Source: Desulfobacterales bacterium (GTDB lineage Bacteria; Desulfobacterota; Desulfobacteria; Desulfobacterales; JAQWFD01). From it: a DNA stretch of 64,000 nucleotides. Location of the stretch: the NCBI GenBank assembly GCA_028704555.1, contig JAQWFD010000007.1, forward strand, positions 10,764 to 74,763, read 5' to 3'. The translations under genes and the position numbers were made by a program. Below, piece after piece: positions 764-63,620 of the stretch. The notes beneath the pieces are model-generated. The model did no database searches. It was not told the origin of the DNA and saw only the letters and a list, made by a program, of their open reading frames with translations. Position 1 is the first letter of the stretch, and each line of letters opens with the position of its first letter.

Positions 764-857
764 ATGATTATTCCTTATTTAAAGGTGCTTTCAGATGACA
801 GAAGACAGATGATACGTATCATGCATGTTGACTCACGACTCACAACCCACAACTGAT

Positions 858-2354
858 CTACACCCGTTCATAGATATGAGTCATTTCAAGCAGCATATCG
901 ATGGTCTCCGGGGTAATCTGATCGGAGCAAAGGCGCCATTGCCAGTTGCCGGTTTTCCGTGCGGGTTGATTCATTCGGGCATGGGTTCCCATTCCCAGAA
1001 TATCCTGCATGGGGATAATTGACAGGTCAGCAGTCGACATCATGGCCATCCGGATCATTTCACGGTGAATTTCCTCTACAGGCACTTTTCTTCCGAGGTA
1101 GCGATACAGGTTCAGCCGCTGGAGGCTGTTTTCCGGATCTTCAAACCAGCCCCTGACGGTATCGTTGTCATGGGTTCCTGTATAGACTACGCAGTGCTTC
1201 GGAAGGTTGTGCGGCATATAAGCACTGGCAGGAAAATCATCTCCAAATGCAAATTCGAGAATTTTCATGCCCGGGAATCCAAACTGATGCATGAGTTCCC
1301 GGACATCAGCGGTGATGGTCCCCAGATCTTCGGCAATCACGGGCAGACAGGGAAAGATTCGGATCAGCTGATTGAAAAAATCAATTCCCGGCGTGTCAAC
1401 CCATTTCCCGTTTTGGGCCGTTAATTCACTGGCGGGGACTTCCCAGCAGGCGCAGAATCCGCGGAAATGATCAATCCTGATCCGATCATATAATGCCAGA
1501 TTGTGACGTATCCGGTGAATCCACCAGCTGTACCCGAGTTGTATCAGTGCCGTCCAGTTATAAACCGGATGGCCCCACAGCTGACCGGTCCGGCTGAAAT
1601 AATCCGGCGGCACGCCGGATACGGCTATCGGCTTTTTGTGTTCGTCCAGCTTGAATATGTCCGGATGAATCCACAGATCCGCACTGTCATATGGCATGTA
1701 AATGGGGATATCTCCCAGCAGTTGAATGCGTTTGAGGTTGCAGTATCGTTTCAGACGGGTCCATTGCAGATGAAACATATACTGGAAAAATTTTTCCCTG
1801 TTTAAAGCGTCCGCCAGTTTGATTGCGGCTACCTCAAGAGAGCCGGGAAGTCGGTCACGAAGCGGAGCCGGCCACTCAGCCCATATTTTACCCCGGAAAT
1901 GAGATCGCAGAACAGTAAACAGCGAAAAATCATCCAGCCAGCCGGCATGATATCGGCAGAAGCGGTCAAAATCCGCATGGCTTTCCAGGGTTTTAAACCG
2001 TTCGTAAGCCAGTTCAAGAAGGTGTTTCTTAAACGAGACCGTCTTTTTGAAATCAACCCGGTCCTTTGGAAATTGCGGACGGGAATCAAGCTCTGATTGT
2101 TTGAGCAGTCCGTCTCTGACCAGAAACTCCGGGCTGATGAGCAGCTCATTGCCCGCGAAGGCTGACGTGCTGTAATACGGCGAGCAGCCATGAACAACCT
2201 CAACGGGATTCAGCGGCAGGAGCTGCCAGACGCTCTGGCGCGTTTGAGCCAGAAAATCGGCAAACCCATAGGCTCCCGGCCCCAGATCCCCGATTCCAAA
2301 GTCAGAAGGCAGAGACGTAATATGCAGAAGAATGCCGCTGGATCTTTTTGTCAT
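858..2354 (-). CDS. malQ: 4-alpha-glucanotransferase (amylomaltase, GH77)
   Basis: 498 aa. N-terminus RSSGILLHITSLPSDFGIGDLGPGAYGFADFL, plus the full-length GH77 pattern (YYSTSAFAGNELLISPE, HDNDT). Confidence 0.9.
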   Translation of the reverse strand: MTKRSSGILLHITSLPSDFGIGDLGPGAYGFADFLAQTRQSVWQLLPLNPVEVVHGCSPYYSTSAFAGNELLISPEFLVRDGLLKQSELDSRPQFPKDRVDFKKTVSFKKHLLELAYERFKTLESHADFDRFCRYHAGWLDDFSLFTVLRSHFRGKIWAEWPAPLRDRLPGSLEVAAIKLADALNREKFFQYMFHLQWTRLKRYCNLKRIQLLGDIPIYMPYDSADLWIHPDIFKLDEHKKPIAVSGVPPDYFSRTGQLWGHPVYNWTALIQLGYSWWIHRIRHNLALYDRIRIDHFRGFCACWEVPASELTAQNGKWVDTPGIDFFNQLIRIFPCLPVIAEDLGTITADVRELMHQFGFPGMKILEFAFGDDFPASAYMPHNLPKHCVVYTGTHDNDTVRGWFEDPENSLQRLNLYRYLGRKVPVEEIHREMIRMAMMSTADLSIIPMQDILGMGTHARMNQPARKTGNWQWRLCSDQITPETIDMLLEMTHIYERV

Positions 2355-2378
2355 TCACTGTCCTTGTCAGTCAGATGC

Positions 2379-2504
2379 GTCGTGAGTCTCAACAGTCGTG
2401 AGTCAAAAGATAAAGTCGTGAGTCACTAAAGTCGTGAGTCTCAACAGTCGTGAGTTGAGAGTTGAGAGTCTTCTGCCCTCTGACTTCTGTGCCCTTAACC
2501 CTCC
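2379..2504. repeat. intergenic short-repeat spacer (GTCGTGAGTC word x5, TTGAGAG x2, CTGCCCT and CCCTTAA units)
   Basis: GTCGTGAGTC starts at 2379, 2395, 2415, 2431 and 2447. It is followed by gagttgagagttgagag, ctgccctctgac and gcccttaaccctcc. The spacer lies between the treY stop and the malQ start. Confidence 0.8.
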
Positions 2505-2538
2505 GAGCTTTTCTACGCTTTTAACTCAGCACTCAGTC

Positions 2539-5331: not shown

Positions 5332-5398
5332 CGTATTAATCCGCAGTCATGAGTCGTGAGTCCGCAGTCGTCTGCCATCTGACCTCTGCCCTCCGTCC
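5332..5398. repeat. 67-bp spacer in continuous 7-nt register
   Basis: The minus (sense) strand reads GGACGGA GGGCAGA GGTCAGA TGGCAGA CGACTGC GGACTCA CGACTCA TGACTGC GGATTAA. This fills the gap between the GH57 stop (5399-5401) and the treY start (5331). Confidence 0.75.
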
Positions 5399-7846
5399 TC
5401 ATTCTTCGATATAAAATGACAGATTCCTGCCCACGGCGATAAAATGCTCAACCCACCGGCCAGCGGCTTCATCTTTTTGTTGAGCCTTGTTCTTCATTTC
5501 CGGATAGGTATCGGTCATGATGGTATTGAACATGTTTTGAATTTTTCTCAGATTCACGTTAAATGGAAGTATCTTCAGGAGATTGACTGCGGATTCCTGT
5601 TTTTCAAGGGCCGAAAAATCTAAGGGCTGCTTAGAAAATGAATCGGCAATCAGTTCAAGCGATTGCCGCAATGCATATTCAAGTGTCAGCGAATCCAGGG
5701 GAACGCCGATCATTCCGGCTTCATCCAGGTGACTTTTTATCTGATATTCCTCAAAATTTTCATTTTGAAATGCTTTTAGAAGGTGAAAATTCAGATAAAA
5801 TTCTGCTGATTTGTACAGACTGTCCGGAATAGGTATATTTATATTTTTCAGAAATCGCAGCATGGCGGCATTGCTTTCGTATATCTGCTGGAAGGCATTT
5901 TGTGCTTCATCTAAGGCCGGCTGCATGATTTGATCCAGAATTTTACGTTGTTCATCGTGGAATATAGTTTGAAGCGAATAGATGGATGTGCCGAAATAGT
6001 TATTCATTAACTGAAGCGTTTTTGGAAAATCCGCTTCGGAAAAGGCCTGAGAGATGGTTTCCTTCATTGACTCGTAATTTTCATCGGATTGAAATTCATG
6101 GGAACCGCAGGTAAGGGTATGTTTGCCCAGATGAAGCACGGCAAAACACAGCCGGACAGATTCGTTTATAATTTCCGATGTGATACGAATTCGTCCTGTC
6201 AGCAGCTTTGATCTGCCAATCGTATGGATCTGGTAATCTTCCCTGTCTGCGGTGTAGCAAAAGATGGATGCCTGATCGGCATATTGCTCGAATATCGAAC
6301 TCATGGCATAATGGGCTCCCACTTTTTTTAAATCCACCATAGACGGTATGATAAATTTTTCGTATATGAGTCGACCATTTCCATGTTCAGGAAAATTGCT
6401 CATTGCTTCTTCCAATTTTGTCAGAAAGTTTGTTTCTATGGAATTTCCAAACAACTCTTTGTAAATCTGGATGGCCCGTCCGGCGTATTGAATGATTTGT
6501 ACGGTTTCGATACCGGAGATTTCATCGAAGAACCAGCCGCAGCTGGTGAACATCAGCATGGCATTTCTCTGAAGTTCCATGAGCTTCAACACCGTGTTTA
6601 TTTCGGGAGGCTCCAGTTTTCTTACCGCATGACTGGAAAGAAACGCTTCGATCGTATCATTGGACCGGGGGGACCGGTTCAGGGACCGGTTCAGCAGGAT
6701 CTGGATATAATCATTGCGTGCGGTAACCGGATTTTTCAGAAGTTGTTGCGCCTTTTCCATATATGGGGGTGACAGTTGATCCCGGAGCCAGTTCAGGGAT
6801 GCCCGAAGCGGCGCACGCCATGACTGGTTCCAGTCCGGATGTCCTCCGGTACAGCATCCGCAGTTGCTTTTCCATCGCTCAATTCCGTGAGGACAGCTCC
6901 AGGAGGAATTTTCCACCAGTTGAACGTCATAAGCCGGTGGGTGCTTTTCCAGAAATTCGCCATAATTGGTTAACGATACCGATGTCTGGGATTCGATGAA
7001 GTTCAGCGCAAAGGCAAGTCCTTTGTCGCCACCCTGATAATGATGGCCATAGGTTTCTCCGTCTGTGGCGATATGGACCAGCCCGGAGCTGGTCTCGTCC
7101 GAAAAGCCGTTCAGGAGCATTTCGGCAAACTTTTTCCCATTCTGCATCAGTCCCTTGTATGCGACGGCATGCGATATTTCCGCGTCGTAAAAAAAGATGG
7201 ATATGGTTTTGCCGGATGGCAGCCGGGCGTTATAGGCCATGGTGGTATCGATCGTGTCAGGTGCTGCATCTGACCAGATGCCTTTATCCGAGGGTTTTAT
7301 CCGGGCAGCCTGATGCGGGGCGAGGATCGTAAACCGGATACCCAGTTCGACCATCATATCCAGGGATTCGAGATCAACCGCTGTCTCCGGCAGCCACATT
7401 CCCTCGGGTTTCCGGTTGAACCGGTGGGTGAAATCCTGGATTCCCCAGTATATCTGGGTATATTTATCCGCGGGATTGGCCAGAGGAAGAATCATATGGT
7501 TATACGGTTGAGCCAGCGCGGAACCGTGCCCTGAAAAAAATTGCCGGCTTTCAACATCCGCTGTTAAAATGGCATTATAGACGTCCGGTGCTTCATGTTC
7601 CAGCCAGGTCAGCAATGTGGGTCCGAAATTAAAGCTGATTCTGGAATAGTTATTCACGATTTTCAGAATCTGATTTTTCTGGTTTAAAATCCGGGAGGTG
7701 GCGTTGGTTGCATAACATTCAGCCGTAATCCGGTGATTCCAGTCATGGTATGGATATGCCGAGTCCTGGAGTTCTACGGCTTCCAGCCATGGATTTTCAC
7801 GGGGCGGCTGGTAAAAATGTCCGTGAATACAGATATATTTGTTCAT
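5399..7846 (-). CDS. GH57-family glycoside hydrolase with long C-terminal extension
   Basis: The sequence MNKYICIHGHFYQPPRENPWLEAVELQDSAYPYHDWNHRITAECY is typical of GH57. I chose the start at Met34 of the tracked ORF (ATG rc 7844-7846), 5 nt after the treZ stop. The upstream extension overlaps treZ. Confidence 0.8.
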   Translation of the reverse strand: MNKYICIHGHFYQPPRENPWLEAVELQDSAYPYHDWNHRITAECYATNATSRILNQKNQILKIVNNYSRISFNFGPTLLTWLEHEAPDVYNAILTADVESRQFFSGHGSALAQPYNHMILPLANPADKYTQIYWGIQDFTHRFNRKPEGMWLPETAVDLESLDMMVELGIRFTILAPHQAARIKPSDKGIWSDAAPDTIDTTMAYNARLPSGKTISIFFYDAEISHAVAYKGLMQNGKKFAEMLLNGFSDETSSGLVHIATDGETYGHHYQGGDKGLAFALNFIESQTSVSLTNYGEFLEKHPPAYDVQLVENSSWSCPHGIERWKSNCGCCTGGHPDWNQSWRAPLRASLNWLRDQLSPPYMEKAQQLLKNPVTARNDYIQILLNRSLNRSPRSNDTIEAFLSSHAVRKLEPPEINTVLKLMELQRNAMLMFTSCGWFFDEISGIETVQIIQYAGRAIQIYKELFGNSIETNFLTKLEEAMSNFPEHGNGRLIYEKFIIPSMVDLKKVGAHYAMSSIFEQYADQASIFCYTADREDYQIHTIGRSKLLTGRIRITSEIINESVRLCFAVLHLGKHTLTCGSHEFQSDENYESMKETISQAFSEADFPKTLQLMNNYFGTSIYSLQTIFHDEQRKILDQIMQPALDEAQNAFQQIYESNAAMLRFLKNINIPIPDSLYKSAEFYLNFHLLKAFQNENFEEYQIKSHLDEAGMIGVPLDSLTLEYALRQSLELIADSFSKQPLDFSALEKQESAVNLLKILPFNVNLRKIQNMFNTIMTDTYPEMKNKAQQKDEAAGRWVEHFIAVGRNLSFYIEE

Positions 7847-7850
7847 CTGT

Positions 7851-9749
7851 CTATCTCTCCTCTGTTTGAGTCTCGCCCGTTTGAATTTCCCCCGTGTGAA
7901 TCTGATTGGCCAGTTCGTTATCCAGGGTAAACAGAAGCACCGCATGCGGTGCTGAAGTTAGCGTTATCAGTCCTTCTGACAGGATTTGAGGTGGAATTGT
8001 GCTTCCGGGACCATTCCATTGCAGCTCTGTCGAATCCAGCCGTTTATCCCATTGGCCCGGAATCCCTCTTATTTCGAATTCGGCCGGTTCACTGTTAAAA
8101 TGATACAGCAGCAGGGCATGGCTGGAACCATTCCAGCGATGAACCGTCAGTGTGTGCCGGTTTTCATTTGCGGTTACCGTCATCTGATCTTTATTCAGAC
8201 AGGCCAGAGCAGGGATTGTTTTCCGCAGGTGTATCAGATAGCGGTAAAACTCAAACAATACCCGGTGATGGCCTTGGTGTCGAAGGCCATGATTGAGTTT
8301 GCACTGTAAAAAGGTGGAGATATCCTGAGGGTCCGGAGGAACCCCCTGCCATTGAAAAGCGGCAAACTCCTTTTCGCGTCCCTTGCGGACAGCTTCAATC
8401 AATGCGGGATCAGAATGGCTGATAAAGTACTGAAAGGGAGCCGGCTCCCCGTATTCCTCACCCATGAACAGCAGGGGAATAAACGGGGACAGCAGGGCCA
8501 GGGCCGCTGACAGTTTCAGGACTTCAAATGAAACCTGAGCGGATAAGCGCTCACCCATCATCCGGTTACCCACCTGATCATGATTCTGTATAAATACGAT
8601 CAGGCGGTCAGCGGTCAGTTGCCGTGAGGAATTTCCGTGTCTGCGATTTCGATAGAACGAATATTGTCCGGAATAAACAAATCCTTCCCGACAGGCTTTG
8701 GCCAGGTGATCCAATGTTCCGAAATCCTGAAAGTAGCCGGTTTTTTCTCCGGTTACCAGGCTGTGGACGCTGTGGTGGAAATCTTCATTCCACTGGGCAT
8801 CCAGATCATAGCCTCCAAGATATTCCGGGCGTACTATTTTTGTATCGTTGAGATCGCTTTCCGCAATCGTGTAGACGCGCCGGTTCAGGCTTTCTGACAG
8901 GCGGTGGACGGTTTCCGACAGCTCCAGGAGAAACGGACGGGCGGAAAAATCCATGATGGCATGAACCGCATCGATTCTCAGTGCGTCAATATGACAGTCG
9001 TGAATCCAGTAGATCGCATTTTCAATAAAAAACCGGCGGACATGGTCATTTCCCCGGTCATCGAAGTTCATGGCCGGTCCCCACGGGGTTGAATATACAT
9101 CGGTGAAATAAGGGCCAAACTTGCTGAAATAATTCCCCTCGGGCCCGAGATGATTGTAGACGACATCCAGAACAACGGCCAGTCCTTTGCGATGACAGGC
9201 GTTGACCAGATTTTTTAATCCGGTCGGACCCCCGTAGGAATGCTGAATCGCAAACGGATAGGCCGGATCATACCCCCAGTTTCGATCCCCCGGAAACTGG
9301 GCAACCGGCATCAGTTCGATGGCGGTAATTCCCAGATCTTTGAGTGTGTCCAGCCAGGGGATAACGGCTCCGAATGTCCCTTCCGGGGTAAAGGTGCCGA
9401 CATGCAGCTCATACAAAATGTACCGGCTCAGACAGATGCCGGACCAGTGGCTGTCATTCCATGAAAATACGGAGGGTATGATTTCCGAAGGGCCATGCAC
9501 GCCTTCGGGCTGGTATCGAGATGCAGGATCGGGCCACGGCCCCCCGTCATCCAGTTGATAAAAGTACCGGGTTCCGGGACCTGTGCCATCGATAATACCA
9601 GAATGGTAGCCATCGGCATTTTTTTTTAACGCCTCGCTCCGGTTTTCAGGATACACGATATGGACATTCACCTGCCGGGCAAAAGGTGCCCACACGATAA
9701 ACCGGCATCGGTTCAGTCCCAGAAAGGTGGCGCCCAGTTTTGTATTCAT
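7851..9749 (-). CDS. treZ: malto-oligosyltrehalose trehalohydrolase (GH13)
   Basis: Supported by GATFLG..CRFIVWAPFARQVNVHIV, the GH13 core (DVVYNHLGPEGNY, LRIDAVHAI, QNHDQVGNR) and its position with treY. The start is uncertain: 9749 (MNTKLGATF) or an upstream GTG at 9785. Confidence 0.85.
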   Translation of the reverse strand: MNTKLGATFLGLNRCRFIVWAPFARQVNVHIVYPENRSEALKKNADGYHSGIIDGTGPGTRYFYQLDDGGPWPDPASRYQPEGVHGPSEIIPSVFSWNDSHWSGICLSRYILYELHVGTFTPEGTFGAVIPWLDTLKDLGITAIELMPVAQFPGDRNWGYDPAYPFAIQHSYGGPTGLKNLVNACHRKGLAVVLDVVYNHLGPEGNYFSKFGPYFTDVYSTPWGPAMNFDDRGNDHVRRFFIENAIYWIHDCHIDALRIDAVHAIMDFSARPFLLELSETVHRLSESLNRRVYTIAESDLNDTKIVRPEYLGGYDLDAQWNEDFHHSVHSLVTGEKTGYFQDFGTLDHLAKACREGFVYSGQYSFYRNRRHGNSSRQLTADRLIVFIQNHDQVGNRMMGERLSAQVSFEVLKLSAALALLSPFIPLLFMGEEYGEPAPFQYFISHSDPALIEAVRKGREKEFAAFQWQGVPPDPQDISTFLQCKLNHGLRHQGHHRVLFEFYRYLIHLRKTIPALACLNKDQMTVTANENRHTLTVHRWNGSSHALLLYHFNSEPAEFEIRGIPGQWDKRLDSTELQWNGPGSTIPPQILSEGLITLTSAPHAVLLFTLDNELANQIHTGEIQTGETQTEER

Positions 9750-9780
9750 CCATAAACCCCATCGACCAGAGTCGATTCCC

Positions 9781-9822
9781 TGCACCTTATACCCTGCACC
9801 TTATACCCTATACCCTATACCT
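9781..9822. repeat. tandem repeat TGCACCTTATACCC x2 then TATACCC x2
   Basis: Read directly at 9781-9822. On the minus (sense) strand this gives GGGTATA units just downstream of the treT stop. Confidence 0.8.
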
Positions 9823-9836
9823 TTCATCCTGTTTTT

Positions 9837-11096
9837 TTACCGGTCCATTTTACAAAACAATTCAATCCGATCCCGGGTACCACGAATGACTGCCAGCATT
9901 AAAGACAGGTATTCGCGAAGATGACGTGTCAGGAGAAAATTTTCTCTGACGTAGGTTCTGGCTTTGGCGCCCATTTCATCCAGTTTCTCCCGGTTGTTGA
10001 GCAGATAACGGATGCGAAGTGCAGCCCCTTCCGGCGTATTGACCAGAAATCCGGTATGATTGTCGATCACCTGCCGGCGAATACCGCCGGTATTCCCTCC
10101 GATAACCGGTTTGCCTTTCCACATGGCTTCGGTAACGGTCAGTCCGAATCCTTCTTTGAGCGATTTTTGAAGCGATATATCGGCGATGCGCTGGAGGGCG
10201 TTGATGGTGCGATGGGCATCGGACGGAAGCAGCAGCACGTGAATATCCGGATCATCCTGAGCAATGCTTTTGACCTCGGACAGGACTTCTTCGCCTTCGG
10301 GGTCATCCGAAGCGCCTCCGCCGGCCAGCACCAGCTGCAGACGCGGATTGAACTCTTTGGCCAGCCGATAGGAACGGATGACGCCGACCGGGTCCTTGAA
10401 ACGATCAAATCTGGAGACCTGAACGAGTATGGGCCGTTCTCTGTCCAATCCGTATGTGGTGCAGACTGTATCGATTTCTTCGGGACATAACTCGGCGTTT
10501 TTATCACTTAACGGATCGATGCTCGGCGGTATGATGTATAACGGATGGGGCATGGGACGGGCAAAATCGGGCAGGGACCAGATGCTCGCGTCATATCCTA
10601 ATATGTACTGTCTTAAATATTTCCAGACGGGGCGGTGAGGGCGGCTGGCATCGATATGACACCGCCATATCCATTTGCCTTTCCGGTTGCTGCACAGGTT
10701 GAGCAGCGGTGCGGGTTGCGGATCATGGATAACTACGATATCGGCATCCTCCAGATCATTTCGGAGTTTTTCAAAATTGGTTTGATTCGTATGCTCGTAG
10801 GCGGTTAGCAGCGATTGCGATATGTCCTCACGGGTTCCCTGAAGTCCATTGTGCATTTTTTTGGTGCACTGGTAAAAATCCGATTCACCGGTGATGACGT
10901 GCCAGATCGCATTCAAGCCGAGTTCCTGCTTCAGGGGAATCAGATTATGCAGTATCTCAGCCACGCCCCCGCCTTCTTTGGTGGAATTGACATGGACCAC
11001 CTTGATGCCTTTGAGCGATTCAGCCACCTGCCTCAGATGATTGATAACGTCAGTGCCGGCGACCATTGCATAGTTGTCAAGTTTACTGGCCATCAT
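9837..11096 (-). CDS. treT: trehalose synthase, TreT-type GT4 glycosyltransferase
   Basis: 419 aa. [48 protein letters not shown] and [20 protein letters not shown] closely track my memory of archaeal/Thermotoga TreT. The assignment is from memory only. Confidence 0.7.
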
Positions 11097-11957: not shown

Positions 11958-13544
11958 ATGAATATTTTGATAATGGCATCGGAAAATGACGGTATCAAAG
12001 GCGGCAAGGTCGGTGGCCTGGGCGATGTGATCAGGGATGTTCCGCCGGCCCTTGCAGCACGTGGCCATATGGTGCATGTGGTGACGCCTTCATATGGCTT
12101 TTTGCATCGGATCAACGATTCCAGGCAAACCGGGACCGTCGGGTTCATGTTCTCCGGTCGGTTTCATGAAGCGGATCTGTATGAGGTTCAAGGGAAAAAC
12201 CACCATTCCCACATTCGCCTTTCGGTTATTGAACATCCCGTTTTTGCTTCCCAAGACAATCGGGGGGATCATTCGTTTTATTCTTTTGACCCGCCGGATC
12301 GTCCCTTTGCATCGGATGCGACGAAATTTGCGCTTTTCTGCATGGCAATCGCAAAAGCGGTTACAGATGGCGTGTTTGGCCGTTTGGACTGCATTCATCT
12401 GCATGACTGGCACATGGGTTTTTTCCTTATCCTGAGGGCATTTCATCCGGAGATGAAAGGGCTTCAACAGATTCGAAGTGTTTTCAGCATTCATAACCTG
12501 GCTCTCCAGGGAATTCGCCCGTTTCGCAACAGTGATTCATCGCTGGAAGCATGGTATCCAGGGCTCGGTTACAATCCGGATCTTCTTTCCGACCCCCGGT
12601 GGCGGAATTGCGTGAATCCAATGGCGTCGGCTATTCGATTAGCGGATGCAGTGCACACGGTTTCTCCTGCCTATGCCGATGAAATTCTTCATCCCAGCAG
12701 GCAGCCCATGTTTTACGGTGGGGAAGGACTTGAAGCCGATCTGGTGCAAGCCAGGGACAAGCACCGCCTGTCTGGTATTCTCAATGGCTGTGCTTATCCG
12801 GAATCGCACCAGCCTGCCAGGATGAAGTGGCAGGCGCTGCTGAAATTGCTGTCCAACGCTGTTATTCAATGGTGCGGGAAAAGCCATACGGTTCCGGCAG
12901 CCCATTTTATTGCCTGTGAACGGCTCAAACAGCTTGAGCGATTATCCCAAAAGCCGGATATGGTGATGACAACGGTCAGCCGGGTCGTTGAACAGAAACT
13001 GTATTTGATGAAAGCGCCCGGATCTGTTCAGATGACGGGTCAGATGTCCGGTCTGGACCAACTCCTGAGAGATATCGAAGGCCATGGCGTCTATCTGTTT
13101 CTTGGCGCCGGTGACCCGGAATATGAATGGTTTTTGACACAGATGAGTTCCCGGTACCGTCATTTTGTGTTTTTAAACGGGTATTCGGAGGATTGCGCAC
13201 AGGCGTTATACGCAAACGGGGATCTTTTTGTTATGCCCAGCAGTTTTGAACCCTGCGGAATCAGCCAGATGCTGGCCATGCGTGACGGCCAGCCCTGCCT
13301 CGTCCATAATGTGGGGGGGTTAAAAGATACGGTTCAACACGGATACAATGGGTTTGTTTTCAATGGGAACACTGTCATCGAGATGGTGGATGATTTTATC
13401 AGGACAGGCAGGGAAGCAGCTGAAATAAAACTGAATGCCCCGGATAAATGGAAGAAAATATGCCGCCAGGCATCGGATTGCCGATTTCTGTGGGATGACT
13501 CGATTGGGCAATATGTTAAGGGACTGTATGAGGGGAAGGGATAG
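11958..13544 (+). CDS. glgA: glycogen/starch synthase (GT5)
   Basis: MNILIMASENDGIKGGKVGGLGDVIRDVPPALAARGH carries the K-x-GGL-x-DV motif. The C-terminal SSFEPCGISQM matches GT5/GT-B. Confidence 0.85.
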   Translation: MNILIMASENDGIKGGKVGGLGDVIRDVPPALAARGHMVHVVTPSYGFLHRINDSRQTGTVGFMFSGRFHEADLYEVQGKNHHSHIRLSVIEHPVFASQDNRGDHSFYSFDPPDRPFASDATKFALFCMAIAKAVTDGVFGRLDCIHLHDWHMGFFLILRAFHPEMKGLQQIRSVFSIHNLALQGIRPFRNSDSSLEAWYPGLGYNPDLLSDPRWRNCVNPMASAIRLADAVHTVSPAYADEILHPSRQPMFYGGEGLEADLVQARDKHRLSGILNGCAYPESHQPARMKWQALLKLLSNAVIQWCGKSHTVPAAHFIACERLKQLERLSQKPDMVMTTVSRVVEQKLYLMKAPGSVQMTGQMSGLDQLLRDIEGHGVYLFLGAGDPEYEWFLTQMSSRYRHFVFLNGYSEDCAQALYANGDLFVMPSSFEPCGISQMLAMRDGQPCLVHNVGGLKDTVQHGYNGFVFNGNTVIEMVDDFIRTGREAAEIKLNAPDKWKKICRQASDCRFLWDDSIGQYVKGLYEGKG

Positions 13545-13697
13545 TAGGGAGTAGGGAGTAGGGAGTAGGGAGTAGGGAGAGAAAGATAGGGGGCGGGTAA
13601 AAGAGTATAAGGTTTAGGGTACAGGGATAAAGGGGAAAGTGGTCTGTATTTCTGCCTACTCCCTACTGCTTACTCTGCCCTCTGCCCTCCGTCCCCC
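13545..13697. repeat. (TAGGGAG)x5 run plus inverted heptamer units between convergent genes
   Basis: TAGGGAG occurs five times in exact tandem at 13545-13579, starting on the base after the glgA TAG. The inverted copy CTACTCCCTAC lies at 13656-13666. TCTGCCC units at 13671-13690 run up to the kinase stop. Confidence 0.85.
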
Positions 13698-16532
13698 TTA
13701 ACTTATTTTTTTAAGCAATTCGAGCGCTTCATCGTACTCATAATCATGAATATGTCTTTCGAGAGCCTGCCGGTTCGGTGGGTCAAAAAACGGGCTGACC
13801 GATTTTAAATGGCGGTAGACACCGATTGGATCATAATGAATCAGGGCGTCGGTCAACAATTGCAGTTCGGGCTTGACATCGTTGCTCTCGTCCGGTTCAA
13901 TCTTTTCAACCGGGCTCTCGGTCAGTGTCTGCAAAGACGACAGAACCTGATTCAGCTTCTGTATCAGCGGGTCAATCAGGCTGGCATCCGGTGCTTCAGT
14001 GTCGTTTACGGTGGCGCTCTCAAGATCGTATGCGGCAGCGCGCAGGGGTTCGGCGCAAATATTGGCGGCACTTCCTTTGAGACTGTGGGCGATCAGATGA
14101 AGCTGCTTCCAGTCGTTTTTTTCAACACAGTCTTTTATTCTTTCTCCGGTTTGCAGATTGCTCTGATGAAATCCGGTCAGGATTCGTCTGAATATATCCG
14201 GGGCAATATTCAAGGCGGACAAAGCGCTTTGGATATCAATTCCGGGCAGTGTTGCGGGTAAAATATCTACAGAGCGCTGTTTCTTTTCATCCGGGTGCTC
14301 AAATTCAAGGGCAGGCTTGTCCGCCTCTGCGGGAGGCTCAACGGCCTTATATCGTTCGATGGCTTTCCAGAGAATCTGATACAGCCTGTCCTGACGGATG
14401 GGTTTGGAAATGTATGCGTCCATTCCCGCTTCAAGGCATTGTTTTTCAATGTCTTTTGTGGTGTCAGCCGTCATGGCGATGATCGGAAGATTTTTTAATT
14501 CCGGATTGTTACGAATCGTGAGGGTAGCCTCGTACCCGTCCATATCCGGCAGCTGAATGTCCATAAATACGGCATCGAAATCATGTTGTTTCAAGGCATT
14601 TAAGGCTTCAGTACCGTTTTTCGCAATGTGTACCGTAACACGAGCGGTTTCAAGCAGGACCTTTGCAATTTCCCGACTGGTTTCGTCGTCTTCAACAAGT
14701 AATACACGCAATCCTTTCAGTCTGTGTTGATTCAGAGCGGAGCGGCTCTTAACGGATGTCTGTCGGACCGGATATCGGAATACCTGTTTTCCGAATGCAT
14801 CCATGATTGCGTTAAACACGGCGGCGGGTGACATCGGTTTCATCAGAAAACCGTTGATCCCCGTTTTTACGGTATCCATTTTTTCATTTTCAATACCGTA
14901 TACGGACATGAGTATAATTGGAATGTCCAGCTGTAAATCCTGTCTGATTTTTTTCGATGTCTCTATTCCGTTCATATCCGGCATGTTGAAATCTATCATG
15001 ATCAGCGAAAAGGGGACTTCCGTACTTTGGGTGCCTTTGAGCATGTCCAGTGCGTCAATTCCGGATGACACGGCTGTCACATGGAATCTGAAAAATTCGA
15101 GGTACTTTCGGATGATATCCCGGCTGTCCGGGCAGTCATCAACGACCATTACCTTAAAGCCATCCATCTCATCAGGTACCGTTATCACCGGATATTCGAC
15201 CTCCGGCTGCAAATCAAATTCTGCGGTAAATGAAAATGTACTGCCTTTTCCCGGCTGGCTTTGAACCTGAATATCTCCATTCATCAGCCTGGCCACTTGA
15301 CTGCTGATACTCAGGCCGAGACCGGCCCCCTCATATTTGCGTGTGGTGGAAATATCCTCCTGTGTGAATGGTTTAAACAGCATTTGCTGATGCTTTTCAG
15401 ATATACCGATTCCGGTATCTTTCACAATAAATGATAATTGGATCCGGTTGGCGGACAGCTCCGATGCGGTTACACTGATCAGGATCATACCGTTGTTCGG
15501 AGTAAATTTTAAGGCGTTTCCGACCAGATTGTATAAAATCTGCTGAAGCCGGAGAGCATCTCCAATCAAAGCTTTTGGCATTTCCGGATCAATATCGGTG
15601 AGAAATTCGATTTGTTTTACCGCCGCTTTGCTGACAAACGTATTGGTAACCCGGTCAAGTATGTCATCGAGCCGGAACGGTTTGATGCTCAGAGCCAGTC
15701 TGCCGGCTTCGATTTTTGAAAAATCGAGAATGTCATTGATAATTCCGAGCAGGGAGCTGGCCGAGGCATGAATGATTTTCAGATAATGTTTTACTTTCGG
15801 CGAAATGGCCTCGCTCTGTGCCAGTTCAGCAGCTGCAATGACCCCATTCATGGGGGTTCGGATTTCATGGCTCATATTGGTTATAAAAGCGCTTTTTGCC
15901 CGGGTTGCGACCTCGGCCTCCTTTTTTGCCTGTTGAAGCTCTATCTCCATCTGAACCCGGTCGGTAATGTCCCTGCCTTCCGGTATCAGATATTCAATAT
16001 CGCCGGCAGGGTTTTTTACGGGTTTGAGTGAAAAGTCAAAATGATGCCATTGCCCGTCCGCGGTGGGATGAATCGATTCAAAACGGATAAATTCACCAGC
16101 GGCCGCTTTTGTTATGGCATCCTGAAGCCGGATCTGAAGATCCGGAGAATGGCTCCACCATGGGGTTTCCCATAAAAGTTTTCCTTTTATATCGGATTCG
16201 CGGACGCCGATGGCATCCAGAGCCGTCTGGTTGGCGGTTATGATCGTACCGTCGGGTGTCAGAAGGCCGATAAATTGAAATGTCTGATTGAATATGGTGT
16301 TCAGCTTTTTTTCATTTTCCTGTAACTGCTGTTTCATCATCCGGAAGTCAGATTTTTTTTTGAGAAGGAGCGTGGTGGCTCTGTTTAACTGGGCGGATCG
16401 TTTTTCGGCTAACTGTTCAAGCTGATCCCGGTGCTCCATCAGTTTTTTGTTTTGATGACAGAGGCGGGTTGTCTTTGACTCGAATTGTCTGATCCGCCGG
16501 ACCAGATTATCGTAAGTCCGTTGATCGTTCAT
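13698..16532 (-). CDS. hybrid sensor histidine kinase/response regulator (coiled coil, PAS, HisKA, HATPase, REC, REC, HPt)
   Basis: 944 aa. H-box SHEIRTPMNG, a G-box (GAGLGLSIS), two receiver domains (VMVVDDCPDS, VLLVEDDETS) and a C-terminal HPt-like HSLKGSAANI. Confidence 0.85.
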   Translation of the reverse strand: MNDQRTYDNLVRRIRQFESKTTRLCHQNKKLMEHRDQLEQLAEKRSAQLNRATTLLLKKKSDFRMMKQQLQENEKKLNTIFNQTFQFIGLLTPDGTIITANQTALDAIGVRESDIKGKLLWETPWWSHSPDLQIRLQDAITKAAAGEFIRFESIHPTADGQWHHFDFSLKPVKNPAGDIEYLIPEGRDITDRVQMEIELQQAKKEAEVATRAKSAFITNMSHEIRTPMNGVIAAAELAQSEAISPKVKHYLKIIHASASSLLGIINDILDFSKIEAGRLALSIKPFRLDDILDRVTNTFVSKAAVKQIEFLTDIDPEMPKALIGDALRLQQILYNLVGNALKFTPNNGMILISVTASELSANRIQLSFIVKDTGIGISEKHQQMLFKPFTQEDISTTRKYEGAGLGLSISSQVARLMNGDIQVQSQPGKGSTFSFTAEFDLQPEVEYPVITVPDEMDGFKVMVVDDCPDSRDIIRKYLEFFRFHVTAVSSGIDALDMLKGTQSTEVPFSLIMIDFNMPDMNGIETSKKIRQDLQLDIPIILMSVYGIENEKMDTVKTGINGFLMKPMSPAAVFNAIMDAFGKQVFRYPVRQTSVKSRSALNQHRLKGLRVLLVEDDETSREIAKVLLETARVTVHIAKNGTEALNALKQHDFDAVFMDIQLPDMDGYEATLTIRNNPELKNLPIIAMTADTTKDIEKQCLEAGMDAYISKPIRQDRLYQILWKAIERYKAVEPPAEADKPALEFEHPDEKKQRSVDILPATLPGIDIQSALSALNIAPDIFRRILTGFHQSNLQTGERIKDCVEKNDWKQLHLIAHSLKGSAANICAEPLRAAAYDLESATVNDTEAPDASLIDPLIQKLNQVLSSLQTLTESPVEKIEPDESNDVKPELQLLTDALIHYDPIGVYRHLKSVSPFFDPPNRQALERHIHDYEYDEALELLKKIS

Positions 16533-22744: not shown

Positions 22745-22834
22745 GATTTACTCACGACTTACGGACTTACGGACTCACGACTCAAGACTCAAGACTCAAG
22801 ACTCACGACTGATAACCCATAACAGATAACCCAT
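22745..22834. repeat. heptamer-repeat spacer (GACTCAC/GACTCAA x5, GACTGAT, AACCCAT, AACAGAT, AACCCAT)
   Basis: Read directly. GACTCAC at 22772, GACTCAA x3, GACTCAC at 22800, then GATAACCCATAACAGATAACCCAT ending 7 nt before the ATG at 22841. Confidence 0.8.
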
Positions 22835-22840
22835 CCCTTC

Positions 22841-32010: not shown

Positions 32011-32097
32011 GCCGAAGTGGCGGAACTGGTAGACGCGCTAGGTTCAGGGTCTAGTCGGAGTATTCCGGTGGGAGTTCGAGTCTCCCCTTCGGCACCA
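32011..32097 (+). tRNA. tRNA-Leu (anticodon CAG)
   Basis: 87 nt. Acceptor stem GCCGAAG/CTTCGGC, anticodon arm CTAGG-TTCAGGG-TCTAG, long variable arm, T-arm GGGAG-TTCGAGT-CTCCC, encoded CCA. Confidence 0.9.
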
Positions 32098-42566: not shown

Positions 42567-42642
42567 TGGTGGAGATGAGGGGGCTCGAACCCCTGACCTC
42601 GGCGTTGCGAACGCCGCGCTCTCCCAGCTGAGCTACATCCCC
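42567..42642 (-). tRNA. tRNA-Ala (anticodon CGC)
   Basis: The reverse complement is GGGGATGTAGCTCAGCTGGGAGAGCGCGGCGTTCGCAACGCCGAGGTCAGGGGTTCGAGCCCCCTCATCTCCACCA. It has the G3:U70 identity pair, anticodon loop TTCGCAA and an encoded CCA. Confidence 0.9.
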
Positions 42643-46591: not shown

Positions 46592-47158
46592 TTACAAAAG
46601 TCGATAGGGATATGCGCGTTGGGTCCATTCATCGTTAGGAAATTCATCCGTTAACTGCTCGTAGGCTTTTTTGAGAAACCCAGCGTCATTGGATTGTTTA
46701 TACAGGGTTACTCCCTGAAGGTATATGCCTTCAGGGGCTGACCGGGTGGACGGGAAATCTGATAGAAGATTTTTCAGATTTTCAAGGGCCCCATTGAATT
46801 GATCGTGGTCAAAATCTATTTTGGCAATCCCCAGCAGCATGGAGGCCATAAATTCATCCGCTTTAAGAAACCCCACGGTTCGATGATGTTCTTTCCCGTC
46901 ATAATCGAGCGTGACGATCGTCGGCGTCCATTTGACGTTAAAATCACCAGCTGTCGGCTGCGCATCATACCTTACGCGAAGGGGTATCATGTGATCGCTG
47001 ATAAAAGAAATAACCGAAGACTCGGGATACGTAACCGTATCCATCTGTTGACATCCGATTCAGTCCGGATTGAAAAAATCCAGCAGAATCGGTTTGAACT
47101 CGGATTTGGCTTTTTTCAATGCATCATTCATTTGTTTTTCCCACATCATCTTTTTCAT
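46592..47158 (-). CDS. thioredoxin-fold selenoprotein (UxxC), 188 codons with in-frame UGA at codon 33
   Basis: The frame continues upstream of the tracked ORF. ATG at 47158-47156 sits behind AAGGAG and reads MKKMMWEKQMNDALKKAKSEFKPILLDFFNPD, then TGA (47062-47060), then IGCQQMDTVTYPE. The hairpin GGAUACG-GUUA-CGUAUCC (47042-47025) starts 17 nt after the UGA. Confidence 0.7.
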
Positions 47159-47171
47159 GGCAGATCTCCTT

Positions 47172-47423
47172 GGTTAAGGGTTAAGGGTTAAGGGTTAAGG
47201 GTTGATGGCTAATGGCTAATGGCTGAGGGTTGAAGGGTTAAAGGCTTTCCGACTCATGACTGAAGACTCCCGACTGGAGACTCCCGACTGGAGACTCCCG
47301 ACTGGAGACTCCCGACTGGAGACTCACGACTGGAGACTCACGACTGGAGACTCACGACTGGAGACTCACGACCGAAGACTCTCGACTCCCGACTCACGAC
47401 CGAAGACTCACGACTCTTGACTG
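47172..47423. repeat. large tandem array: about 10 heptamer units (GGTTAAG x4 and variants) plus twelve 14-bp units (GACTCCCGACTGGA x4, GACTCACGACTGGA x3 and variants)
   Basis: Units counted directly. Heptamers span 47172-47243 and 14-mers span 47251-47418, with a partial unit ending at 47423. The array fills the spacer between the CBS gene stop and the selenoprotein gene Shine-Dalgarno. Confidence 0.9.
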
Positions 47424-47429
47424 TTAATT

Positions 47430-48047
47430 TCAGATCCAGAGTTCGATAGGCGCCTGGCAGATCAACGTTCGAAGGATATCGCTGCGAGTGATAATGCCAG
47501 CCAGGCTGTCATGGGCGTTGATAATCGGCATGGAACCGATTCGTTCTTCAAATAAAATTCTGGCGATTTTGCGAATTTCCGTTTGAGGCCCTGCGGTCAG
47601 TACCTGCGATTTCATGATGGTTTGAATGGTTATGTGAACCGGATCCCGATGATCCGATCCGTATGCCTGATGCCTGCAGATTTGCGCGGTTTGCCTGAGT
47701 ATATCACGATCGGAGATGATCCCGATAAGCTTGTCTTGTCTGTCAACAACCGGCAGGTGGCGGAACCGGCGGTCGCATATGAGCTGCCATGCGCTATCCA
47801 GACTCGTCTCCGCGGTCAGCGTAACGACAGGAGAAGACATGATCTGATTTGCTGTAATCGCCGGCTTTCGTTCCGGGATCCTGTCATATCGGGTTTGATA
47901 GGATTGCACGGGTGATATCGACTGCTTTGATGATGGGTTTTTGTCCGGTTCAGGTCGAACGGAAATGGCCGATACCCGTGAGGATTTTGAAAGCGGCCGA
48001 ATCCGGTTTGAAATATCAATTCCGTTTTCAAGCCATTTGAAATCCAT
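47430..48047 (-). CDS. CBS-pair domain protein
   Basis: Two CBS motifs (IMSSPVVTLTAETSL...HLPVVDRQDKLIGIISDRDILR and IMKSQVLTAGPQT...MPIINAHDSLAGIITRSDILR). The N-terminal ~60 aa are low complexity, so the start is uncertain. Confidence 0.75.
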   Translation of the reverse strand: MDFKWLENGIDISNRIRPLSKSSRVSAISVRPEPDKNPSSKQSISPVQSYQTRYDRIPERKPAITANQIMSSPVVTLTAETSLDSAWQLICDRRFRHLPVVDRQDKLIGIISDRDILRQTAQICRHQAYGSDHRDPVHITIQTIMKSQVLTAGPQTEIRKIARILFEERIGSMPIINAHDSLAGIITRSDILRTLICQAPIELWI

Positions 48048-58049: not shown

Positions 58050-59030
58050 GTGATTGTTGAAGAATTAACCCGACGGGTTGAGGAAAAACATGCGCTGGTC
58101 AACAGCATTAAAAGCGAAATCCGGAAGGTGCTGGTCGGGCAGTCAGCCTTGATTGACGGGCTTTTGATCGGCTTGTTTACCAAGGGGCATGTGCTGATTG
58201 AGGGGGTTCCGGGTCTGGCCAAAACCAGCGCGGTAATGGCGCTGGCCAATACGGTCCAGGCCGGTTTCAAGCGGATTCAGTTTACCCCGGATCTGCTTCC
58301 GGCCGATTTGATCGGAACGGAGGTTTTCCGTCCCAAAACCGCTGATTTTGTCATCAAAAAAGGACCGGTGTTCAACAATATCATTCTTGCTGACGAAATC
58401 AACCGGGCCCCGTCCAAAGTACAATCCGCACTGCTGGAAGCCATGCAGGAGCGGCAGGTGACCATCGGTGACCATACGTTTCCGCTTCCGGATCCGTTTC
58501 TCGTTCTGGCCACCCAGAATCCAATCGAGCAGGAAGGTACCTATCCGCTTCCCGAAGCACAGGTGGACCGGTTCATGCTCAAGATTCTGATCGATTACCC
58601 GGATAAAAGCGAAGAAAAAGAGATCATGAAGCGGGTCGGGTTTGATGCCCCGTCAGAAGTCCGGCAGATGATCACGCATGAACAGGTCAACGAAATTGCT
58701 TCCCTGATCAAAGAAATCTACATGGATGAAAAGCTCAAAGACTATATCGTGGATCTGGTGTTTGCCACCCGGAATCCTAAAGACTATAACATTGATATCG
58801 CCGAATATATCCAGTTCGGCGCTTCCCCCCGGGCGACGATTTTTCTGAGCCTGGCTGCCCGGGCCTATGCGTTTTTGCAGGGAAGGGCGTACGTGACGCC
58901 GCAGGATATAAAAACCGTGGCTCCGGATGTCCTGCGGCATCGGATTATTCTGACCTATGAGGCGGAGGCCGAAGATATTACCACGGAGCAGATTATCGGC
59001 CATGTGTTTGATTCTGTTGAAGTGCCCTGA
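58050..59030 (+). CDS. MoxR-family AAA+ ATPase
   Basis: GTG start. GHVLIEGVPGLAKT (Walker A), ILADEINRAPSKVQSALLEAMQE (Walker B/sensor), LATQNPIEQEGTYPLPEAQVDRF. Confidence 0.9.
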   Translation: MIVEELTRRVEEKHALVNSIKSEIRKVLVGQSALIDGLLIGLFTKGHVLIEGVPGLAKTSAVMALANTVQAGFKRIQFTPDLLPADLIGTEVFRPKTADFVIKKGPVFNNIILADEINRAPSKVQSALLEAMQERQVTIGDHTFPLPDPFLVLATQNPIEQEGTYPLPEAQVDRFMLKILIDYPDKSEEKEIMKRVGFDAPSEVRQMITHEQVNEIASLIKEIYMDEKLKDYIVDLVFATRNPKDYNIDIAEYIQFGASPRATIFLSLAARAYAFLQGRAYVTPQDIKTVAPDVLRHRIILTYEAEAEDITTEQIIGHVFDSVEVP

Positions 59031-59948: not shown

Positions 59949-60635
59949 ATGAACTCAAAGAACCCCATAACCCTGATAATGATCCTGATGGTCATGCTTG
60001 GCAGCCTGGCTGCAGCCGCGGCGGAACCCGCTGTTGATCCGGCGATCGATCCGGCTGCCATATCTCAAAGCAACGCTTTAACAGATCAGGCACAATCATC
60101 TGATATATATGATATAAAACCGATAGAGAAAATTGGATTTAATTCGGACTATATTCGATATACGGTTTATGCCGCCCTTGCGATTGCGGGCCTTGCCCTG
60201 ATCTCAGCCGTGTTGATTTTCTGGAATAAATGGCGCCGGAAGCCGGTTCAGGATGTTGTCGCACACCTTTGCCCGAAGGAGGAAGCGTTTCAGCTGCTGG
60301 ATCAGGCCGCTGATCTGATGAATACGGACGGACGGCAGTTTTATTTTCAGCTGTCCATGATACTGAGGGGCTATATTGATAAAAGATTTGATATCGATGC
60401 GGTTGAAATGACGACAGAAGAACTCATTCCCTGCATCGTTCAGTTGCGTCTTGACACGGACCTGCAGCGCGGGGTGAAGGAATTTTTCAACGCGAGTGAC
60501 CCCGTAAAGTTTGCCGGTTTTACACCGGATCGGCTCTTGATGGCAGCGCATCTTGAATTTGTAAAAAACTTTGTGAAAGCGACAGCCCCCGCGGACTTAG
60601 AGGACAGTGGCCAACCCTTAACCCTTAACCAATAA
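59949..60635 (+). CDS. DUF4381-like membrane protein of Bat operons
   Basis: Position between DUF58 and BatA, one central TM helix followed by WRRKP..A...L, and a C-terminal DPVKFAG motif. The last codons are encoded by CCCTTAA heptamer repeats. Confidence 0.6.
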   Translation: MNSKNPITLIMILMVMLGSLAAAAAEPAVDPAIDPAAISQSNALTDQAQSSDIYDIKPIEKIGFNSDYIRYTVYAALAIAGLALISAVLIFWNKWRRKPVQDVVAHLCPKEEAFQLLDQAADLMNTDGRQFYFQLSMILRGYIDKRFDIDAVEMTTEELIPCIVQLRLDTDLQRGVKEFFNASDPVKFAGFTPDRLLMAAHLEFVKNFVKATAPADLEDSGQPLTLNQ

Positions 60636-60644
60636 CAGATAACC

Positions 60645-63511: not shown

Positions 63512-63517
63512 TGGACA

Positions 63518-63541
63518 GTCGTGAGTCGTGAGTCGTGAGTC
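63518..63541. repeat. (GTCGTGA)x3 heptamer repeat
   Basis: GTCGTGAGTCGTGAGTCGTGAGTC begins 7 nt after the batB TGA. Confidence 0.85.
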
Positions 63542-63620
63542 AAGGGATACGAGAAGGTGTTAGAAGTGGGAGCAGTTAATCAGAACAGCCGTATGGCGCG
63601 GCCCCCCGTGTCCGACCTTT

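Follow-up and report, generated by a model that had tools for sequence, protein, structure and literature searches.

The spacer examined here lies between two minus-strand genes in a 64,000-nucleotide stretch of DNA (the window; GenBank assembly GCA_028704555.1, contig JAQWFD010000007.1, positions 10,764 to 74,763), and it consists almost entirely of tandem repeats of 7 and 14 nucleotides (nt). An earlier reading of the sequence, hereafter the original prediction, had assumed a deltaproteobacterial host, and NCBI labels a protein of the source metagenome-assembled genome (MAG) 'Desulfobacterales bacterium', in agreement with that assumption. The upstream gene encodes a protein with a pair of CBS domains and the downstream gene a thioredoxin-fold selenoprotein, the Shine-Dalgarno (SD) sequence of which directly adjoins the repeats. 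The features of the locus, in sense order and in window coordinates, are the following.

47430..48047, minus strand: upstream gene, CBS-pair domain protein of 205 aa (Pfam PF00571 CBS, E = 2.5e-26, two stretches), with the stop codon TGA at 47432-47430
47248..47422, minus strand: array of 25 in-phase AGTCnnn-type heptamers, read in sense (TRF period 14 and heptamer parsing)
within 47248..47422, minus strand: 14-nt superunit core of that array, (AGTCGTG AGTCTCC)x4, (AGTCGGG AGTCTCC)x3 and one AGTCGGG AGTCTTC
47172..47247, minus strand: C-rich heptamer array adjoining the SD, AAGCCTT TAACCCT TCAACCC TCAGCCA TTAGCCA x2 TCAACCC TTAACCC x3-4 (TRF period 7)
47166..47171, minus strand: SD AAGGAG, 7 nt 5' of the ATG (read directly)
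46592..47158, minus strand: downstream gene, thioredoxin-fold selenoprotein of 188 aa (Pfam Thioredoxin_2, E = 5e-11 with U read as C), with the start codon ATG at 47158-47156

Direct reading and Tandem Repeats Finder (TRF) bear out the coordinates, the unit counts and the minus-strand placement of the CBS stop and the selenoprotein start that had been proposed. On the plus strand, GGTTAAG occurs four times at 47172-47199 and is followed by GGTTGAT, two copies of GGCTAAT, GGCTGAG and GGTTGAA and, in the period-14 region, by four copies of GACTCCCGACTGGA and then three of GACTCACGACTGGA. TRF resolves 47172-47415 into one array of period 7 (47172-47241, 9.9 copies, consensus GGTTAAG, score 75) and one of period 14 (47251-47415, 11.8 copies, consensus GACTCACGACTGGA, 88% matches, 0 indels, score 232), the 14-mer itself being composed of two heptamers, GACTCAC and GACTGGA. 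The claim that the spacer holds essentially no unique sequence is likewise sustained: the 258 nt from the CBS stop to the SD, read in sense (minus strand) beginning just past the stop, parse as about 37 in-phase heptamers, namely AATTAAC, 25 of the AGTCnnn type and 11 of the TnAnCCn type, with 0 out-of-phase indels. The CCCTTAA run adjoins AAGGAG on the sense strand exactly as described, the array beginning at 47172 and the SD occupying 47171-47166. Self-match over 47159-47429 amounts to 0.62, 0.74, 0.56 and 0.70 at lags of 7, 14, 21 and 28 and to 0.14-0.24 at the remaining lags, a periodicity far beyond chance. By the TRF scores and the lag self-match, the spacer thus contains head-to-tail 7-nt units in runs longer than chance, as is characteristic of heptanucleotide long simple sequence repeats (LSSRs).

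Two alleles of this spacer occur in public assemblies, measuring 258 nt (long) and 181 nt (short) from the stop codon to the SD. The locus was located via exact-protein look-ups, the CBS protein being present as an identical copy on 5 public contigs. The window and GCA_028684125.1 share the long allele base for base, and it is found in part in GCA_028701075.1, the contig of which stops within the array at 47237, and in a Logan contig of SRR22315502 that starts at the (CCCTTAA)4 run, at 47199; ENA ERZ27250894 (MEGAHIT) and JGI 3300028602 share an identical short allele. The short form is therefore represented in two assemblies from different pipelines and the long form in three or four. The difference of 77 nt equals 21 + 56, or 11 x 7: the short allele is without three CCCTTAA units (21 nt) of the C-rich array and without the entire GTG-type block of four 14-nt units, and two or three substitutions in the array come in addition.

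47318..47373, minus strand: four 14-nt GTG-type units (56 nt), long allele only (allele comparison; placement ambiguous, the sequence being repetitive)

The flanks of the two alleles are 99.6% and about 99% identical. Recent amplification of a block, which had been suspected from the homogeneity of the units, gains support from the loss of precisely this block between flanks at least 99% identical, and the comparison of unit counts across strains that the original prediction called for confirms that changes in unit number alter the 5' region of the selenoprotein gene. The short allele is more than a shortened copy of the long one; since it has substitutions of its own and linked single-nucleotide polymorphisms (SNPs) in the flanks, it represents a second strain rather than a collapse by the assembler. 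Length polymorphism in unit multiples between close relatives, a property of LSSRs, and repeat number that varies within or between populations, a property of contingency loci, are both evident in the 258 and 181 nt alleles. A metagenome scan for further alleles returned only the JGI contig 3300028602 and no new allele.

It is extremely unlikely that the array or the length difference was produced by short-read assemblers. Contigs do break in the arrays, three public contigs of this organism ending in them (at 47237 in L003, 47199 in L006 and 13571 in L099), and the data are all short-read assemblies; but the long allele is the same, base for base, in the window, two NCBI MAGs and the Logan contig, the short allele is shared by the ENA and JGI contigs and carries substitutions of its own along with linked SNPs in the flanks, and the homogeneous blocks are at most 56 nt, under read length. 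Separately, in contig JAQUGN010000104.1 of GCA_028684125.1 (L098) the first 118 nt do not align to the window at about 58450-58566 while the remainder is 100% identical, which may reflect a chimera at the contig end or a small structural difference.

Other identities of the spacer were considered and rejected. The plus-strand open reading frame (ORF) at 47256-47420 arises mechanically from the repeats, and the allele indel of 56 nt is not divisible by 3. A CRISPR array would have repeats of at least 23 nt with unique spacers, whereas the units here are only 7 or 14 nt, contiguous and direct. Repetitive extragenic palindromes (REP-BIME), with palindromic units, and miniature inverted-repeat transposable elements (MITE), with terminal inverted repeats, do not fit direct units in a spacer that is not palindromic as RNA or DNA and has 0 Rfam matches. 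On the sense strand, one heptamer, AGTCATG, provides an AUG with GGGAG 9 nt before it and opens a 13-codon ORF (MSRKAFNPSTLSH*, 47216-47257, minus strand) that is present in both alleles and may be due to chance.

Similar arrays occur throughout the window. The scan for tandem repeats of periods 7 and 14 that had been proposed, run on the 64-kb window, found only these two periods enriched (373 and 349 bases, respectively, against at most 62 for any other period from 5 to 15). As many as 345 of the 373 period-7 bases and 332 of the 349 period-14 bases (about 92-95%) are intergenic, though 83% of the window is coding; within the window, the period-7 excess is concentrated in intergenic DNA, as in LSSRs. 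The density of period-7 bases is 5.8 per kb, versus 0.71 per kb (a difference of about 8x) in control DNA consisting of 1.31 Mb around the glutaminyl-tRNA synthetase (GlnRS) genes of 80 other bacterial genomes. The same units recur: AGTCGTG, GGGTTAA and CTCTGCC are found in at least 8 other spacers, with CTCTGCC-type units in three of them; AGTCGTGAGTC, with at most one mismatch, has 31 matches versus 0.41 expected, at six intergenic loci, and GGGTTAAGGG has 13 versus 3.6 expected. The loci are as follows, the strand being given where it is assigned.

830..853: GACTCAC array of the same family as the spacer array, 4 nt from the stop of a 4-alpha-glucanotransferase gene
2378..2501: intercistronic spacer with AGTCGTGAGTC units, GAGTTGA x2.6, CTCTGCC-like units and one GGGTTAAGGG
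5345..5398: intercistronic spacer with AGTCATG/AGTCGTG and CTCTGCC-type heptamers
9778..9824: intercistronic array, CCCTGCACCTTATA x2 and CCCTATA
13540..13694: (AGTAGGG)x5, a partial inverted copy CCTACTCCCTACT and CTCTGCC x2, between convergent genes
22749..22834: divergent-promoter region with GACTTAC/GACTCAC/GACTCAA x8, then ATAACCC-type units up to 7 nt from the ATG at 22841
60613..60636, plus strand: AACCCTT x2.6 directly 5' of the ATG at 60645, with the unit and sense orientation of the array beside the selenoprotein SD
63514..63544, plus strand: (AGTCGTG)x3.6, 3 nt past the stop of a BatA/VWA/TPR gene

At 858-11096 (minus strand) lies a row of glycogen/trehalose genes, which encode a 4-alpha-glucanotransferase, two alpha-amylase-family proteins, a GH57/DUF3536 protein and a TreT-like glycosyltransferase. 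Since four consecutive intercistronic spacers of this row hold heptamer arrays, arrays between same-strand genes are normal in this genome. Their orientation is mixed: the mRNA reads AGTCGTG at 47248-47422, 63514 and 830, but CACGACT at 2378 and 5345, and the GGGTTAA/GGGTATA family likewise occurs in both orientations relative to transcription, which makes it less likely that the motif is read in one way at the RNA level. Concentration of a restriction or methylation motif in the arrays was also examined and rejected, for outside the arrays GAGTC is found 23 times versus 23.2 expected and GACTC 19 versus 24.4, with no depletion.

Some further features of these loci deserve mention. At 13538-13685, between a glgA-like gene (11958-13544, plus strand) and a hybrid histidine kinase gene (13698-16532, minus strand), (AGTAGGG)x5 faces CCTACTCCCTACT, and the two form a predicted hairpin of -56.6 kcal/mol (z = -5.4, equalled by 0 of 200 shuffles) that could be a bidirectional terminator made of heptamer arrays; its G-rich arm is also a G-quadruplex (G4) motif (13532-13556). 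A 13-mer, ATAACAGATAACC, stands just 5' of the ATG in two unrelated genes (starts 22841 and 60645; sites 22818-22840 and 60630-60644), in C-rich, heptamer-like sequence that has no obvious SD. Isolated heptamer arrays were also encountered near the GlnRS genes of unrelated MAGs, assigned to Calditrichia (GTCAATC x13; L041, 14243-14332), Chloroflexia (AGTAAGA x6; L014, 11696-11738), the Clostridiales PH28_bin88 (L046, five sites) and Desulfurivibrionaceae (L042, 4639-4675 and 9910-9945), and such arrays are spread over more phyla than the literature cited here lists.

The gene downstream of the spacer was also characterized. Its in-frame TGA (47062-47060) lies within a redox motif, FFNPD-U-IGC, and is found at the same place in homologues of 61-65% identity on unrelated contigs (FFNPG*IGCQQMD and FFNPD*IGCQQMD; L092, 4766-5353, and L096, 9884-10453). 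The databases hold 189-aa full-length relatives together with many (hundreds) of 150-aa entries that begin just past the TGA. Because the in-frame TGA is conserved in homologues, and because of both the truncated and the full-length relatives, the selenoprotein call and the start codon are considered sound. Gene callers routinely break this family, FFNP(D/G)-U-IGCQQMD, into an ORF of 32-39 aa and one of 150 aa, here 32 and 150 aa. A 7-bp hairpin, GGAUACG-GUUA-CGUAUCC, about 21 nt past the UGA is a candidate bacterial selenocysteine insertion sequence (SECIS). The arrays are not a trait of the gene family: homologues with the conserved UGA elsewhere are without arrays in about 45 kb and without the CBS neighbour, and the array therefore belongs to this genome. 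A search of a genome collection for close relatives gave 0 matches with the thioredoxin query, and the best match with GlnRS was 72% identical, with mixed phyla and no synteny. At the gathering threshold the sole Rfam matches in the window are two tRNA genes, 32011-32094 (plus strand) and 42570-42642 (minus strand).

The original prediction likened the repeats to the short tandemly repeated repetitive (STRR) sequences of cyanobacteria, the classic case of such arrays, and this comparison holds in kind only. As in Calothrix, Nostoc and Anabaena, tandem 7-nt units of several families per genome form dispersed copies in both orientations that are confined to intergenic DNA, and the arrays of this window, made of a few recurring families, follow the STRR/LSSR pattern. 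The unit sequences differ, however, the host is a member of the Desulfobacterales and not a heterocystous cyanobacterium, and one array here has a 14-nt superunit. The consensus units of STRR1-3 are CCCCA(A/G)T, TT(G/T)GTCA and CAACAGT. No tandem dimers of CCCCART, TTKGTCA or CAACAGT beyond chance occur in the window, so that the arrays do not belong to STRR1-3 by sequence.

The TAACTGA repeats of marine Beggiatoaceae, some Cyanobacteria and Bacteroidetes (MacGregor 2015, PMC4679880) resemble the present arrays in being intergenic direct repeats of a heptamer that form arrays within operons, differ by indels in 7-nt steps between close strains, terminate contigs and often end a few nt from a start codon in the sense orientation. 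Whereas the Beggiatoa sets comprise 2-6 copies of one dominant unit and usually take the place of the SD, the spacer has about 37 units of several types followed by a canonical AAGGAG. The only matches to TAACTGA in the window, two with 2 mismatches, lie outside any array, which excludes membership by sequence. As to placement, C-rich arrays adjoin starts at 47172, 60613 and 22812, but an AAGGAG SD follows at the spacer, and other arrays lie past stops.

A further parallel is offered by the G-rich heptamers GGGNATC of Xanthomonas and GGGGAYT of Nostoc (Rehm 2015, PMC4692102), intergenic G3N4 arrays with G4 potential comparable to the GGGTTAA, GGGAGTA and GGGTATA units of the window, with wide length variation between close relatives and some inverted pairs between convergent genes, as at 13540-13694. 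Their loop sequences are different, and in the spacer only 47172-47247 is of the G3N4 type, with a predicted G4, whereas the larger AGTCnnn array lacks the capacity for a G4. The phase-variable heptamer simple sequence repeats (SSRs) of Haemophilus influenzae hmw1A/hmw2A (PMC12721329, PMC8262952) are similarly located between upstream signals and the start codon, with a copy number that varies among isolates, and are transcribed in the leader, for hmw1A as (ATCTTTC)n in the 5' untranslated region (5'-UTR), to which transcription of the spacer as a leader may be likened. They differ in forming a long hairpin with a G-rich arm that is cleaved by RNase III, in contrast to a spacer RNA less structured than shuffles, and in constituting a single specialised locus of a host-adapted pathogen, whereas the spacer has many counterparts in the genome of its environmental host, an anaerobe, and stands beside a redox enzyme gene. 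In the literature searched, no paper linked heptamer repeats to Desulfobacter-type bacteria, and the host lineage may be new for the phenomenon.

The promoter or 5' UTR of the selenoprotein gene had been expected to lie within the repeats. At the consensus level, the spacer contains no sigma-70-like promoter and no intrinsic-terminator-like site, and the closest minus-strand site resembling a promoter lies upstream of the CBS gene; the expectation of a promoter in the array thus found no support, and co-transcription with the CBS gene is the more likely arrangement. The spacer also has no match to a known RNA family in Rfam. The RNA of the whole spacer is predicted to be less structured than dinucleotide shuffles (z = +2.5), and the 92 nt beside the start codon are almost structure-free (-2.7 versus -8.2 kcal/mol for shuffles, z = +1.97). 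Within them, the C-rich tract at 47172-47247 has 40% C and 5% G. This composition allows the proposal that the unstructured 77-nt tract is a Rho-loading (rut-like) site, which would act by polarity or attenuation between the CBS and selenoprotein genes. A C-rich, G-poor and unstructured composition is the hallmark of rut sites, and the tract, almost without structure over 77-92 nt, lies in a 258-nt untranslated gap that has no intrinsic terminator. The support is purely compositional, however, the short allele retains most of the tract, and the tract ends at a strong SD where ribosome loading would counteract Rho; a role as a Rho-loading site is, in our estimate, very unlikely.

A regex scan finds 5 G4 motifs in the 64 kb, 2 of them in heptamer arrays, and one of these stands beside the SD.

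47178..47201, plus strand (template strand): canonical G4 motif GGGTTAAGGGTTAAGGGTTAAGGG, that is (GGGTTAA)3GGG, 7 nt from the SD, long allele only

With at least four G3 tracts and loops of at most 7 nt, the long allele contains a canonical predicted motif and the short allele none. The spacer might on this basis be an expression-tuning locus of the contingency type, in which heptamer copy number sets the amount of selenoprotein via a 5'-UTR like that of hmw1A or via a template-strand G4 toggle beside the SD. The difference in copy number between strains lies directly at the SD, hmw1A expression is indeed controlled by the length of a heptamer SSR, by way of 5'-UTR structure and RNase III (PMC12721329), and the G-rich heptamer arrays of Xanthomonas and Nostoc do form G4s (PMC4692102). 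The predicted folding points the other way. For the SD of the long allele the unpaired probability is 0.33 and for that of the short allele 0.34, values inside the range of spacer-shuffle controls, so folding predicts no effect of copy number; by the same values, sequestration of the SD by CUCC/CCUU motifs scaling with copy number can be rejected, as can a stable leader hairpin of the hmw type, since the z value is +2.5 over the entire spacer and +2.0 over the proximal 92 nt. Moreover, the downstream product is a thioredoxin-fold redox protein and not a typical phase-variable surface protein, like arrays lie past stop codons and in gaps between converging genes, positions at which start-site tuning would be meaningless, and two alleles but no ladder have been seen. 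A tuning function is for these reasons unlikely.

Somewhat more doubtful is the idea that the arrays are binding sites for a protein reading one heptamer per 7 nt, such as an OB-fold, S1, Csp or CsrA-like RNA binder or a DNA-binding regulator, in a genome-wide regulatory network. The occurrence of the same families at many loci would be explained by such a protein, and so would the phase, strict over 25 and 11 units, the C-rich units that adjoin start codons in sense at three loci (47172, 60613, 22812) and the predicted single-strandedness of the proximal leader; a similar hypothesis has been published for the TAACTGA repeats of Beggiatoaceae and the heptamer repeats of Nostoc (PMC4679880; bioRxiv 10.1101/2022.06.06.494920). 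On the other hand, the AGTCGTG and GGGTTAA/GGGTATA families occur in both orientations relative to transcription, the positions vary from 5' of starts to 3' of stops and to gaps between convergent or divergent genes, several binders would be required for the at least four unrelated unit families, and no candidate protein has been identified.

Taken together, we consider it likely that this uncultured Desulfobacterales bacterium has a slippage-driven, genome-wide family of heptanucleotide SSRs (long, STRR-like), to which the spacer belongs as one locus; the spacer is in all likelihood transcribed as an intercistronic leader. On each point examined, the arrays have the properties of the heptanucleotide LSSR class. 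As Mrazek (2007) is cited in PMC4679880 and PMC4692102, heptanucleotide LSSRs are the commonest class of long SSRs in many bacteria and are ascribed to polymerase slippage; Cyanothece strains differ by indels in 7-nt steps, and contigs have a tendency to end in such repeats (PMC4679880). The arrays would lengthen and shorten in steps of 7 or 14 nt through slipped-strand mispairing or unequal recombination, a mechanism we infer here; slippage is consistent with the two alleles and with the explanation attributed to Mrazek. They are tolerated only in non-coding DNA, as their intergenic location shows, 7 not being a multiple of 3. At the spacer, the array fills the entire gap between two same-strand genes and would be read through as an untranslated, structure-poor leader of a CBS / thioredoxin-selenoprotein transcript; the final 77 nt of this leader, C-rich and G-poor, lead directly into a normal SD. 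Read-through appears most likely because the spacer has no recognisable promoter or terminator and because arrays are present in neighbouring operon-like rows. The effect of copy number on expression of the downstream gene would be at most quantitative, and a regulatory consequence, whether through a G4 toggle, a heptamer-binding protein or Rho loading, is possible but unproven.

Several observations weigh against this interpretation. Local slippage alone fails to explain the same few heptamers in many unrelated spacers, and seeding, selection or sequence preference must be added to it. Co-transcription is deduced only from the absence of consensus signals, in a promoter scan that covered the sigma-70 type only. 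The second strain was not found at the other array loci, where the look-ups gave the same strain or nothing, so that the polymorphism is documented at the spacer only; and a single municipal landfill study (Ga0265294, cited in PMC10076291) appears to be the source of all the alleles, in short-read assemblies throughout. The in-phase recurrence of about four heptamer families could instead denote an active, sequence-specific system, either a network of heptamer-binding regulators or one of seeding and spreading, and not passive slippage. We regard this as quite improbable. If true, the system would be analogous to the STRR system of cyanobacteria and the TAACTGA system of Beggiatoaceae, although independent of both, and copy number at the spacer, including the G4 toggle beside the SD, would set selenoprotein output.

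The element is real but not new in kind, as such bacterial microsatellites are known from cyanobacteria, Beggiatoa and Xanthomonas, and it does not reveal a new mechanism; what novelty it retains is the recurrence of identical heptamers at many loci. The class of intergenic heptamer arrays represented by STRR, TAACTGA and GGGNATC now also includes an uncultured, landfill-derived member of the Desulfobacterales. The two alleles, 11 heptamers apart between near-identical flanks, form a clean natural pair, and the locus demonstrates that heptamer arrays can form an entire intercistronic spacer. In practice, heptamer arrays break short-read contigs and confuse gene callers, and they could act as strain markers in metagenomes.

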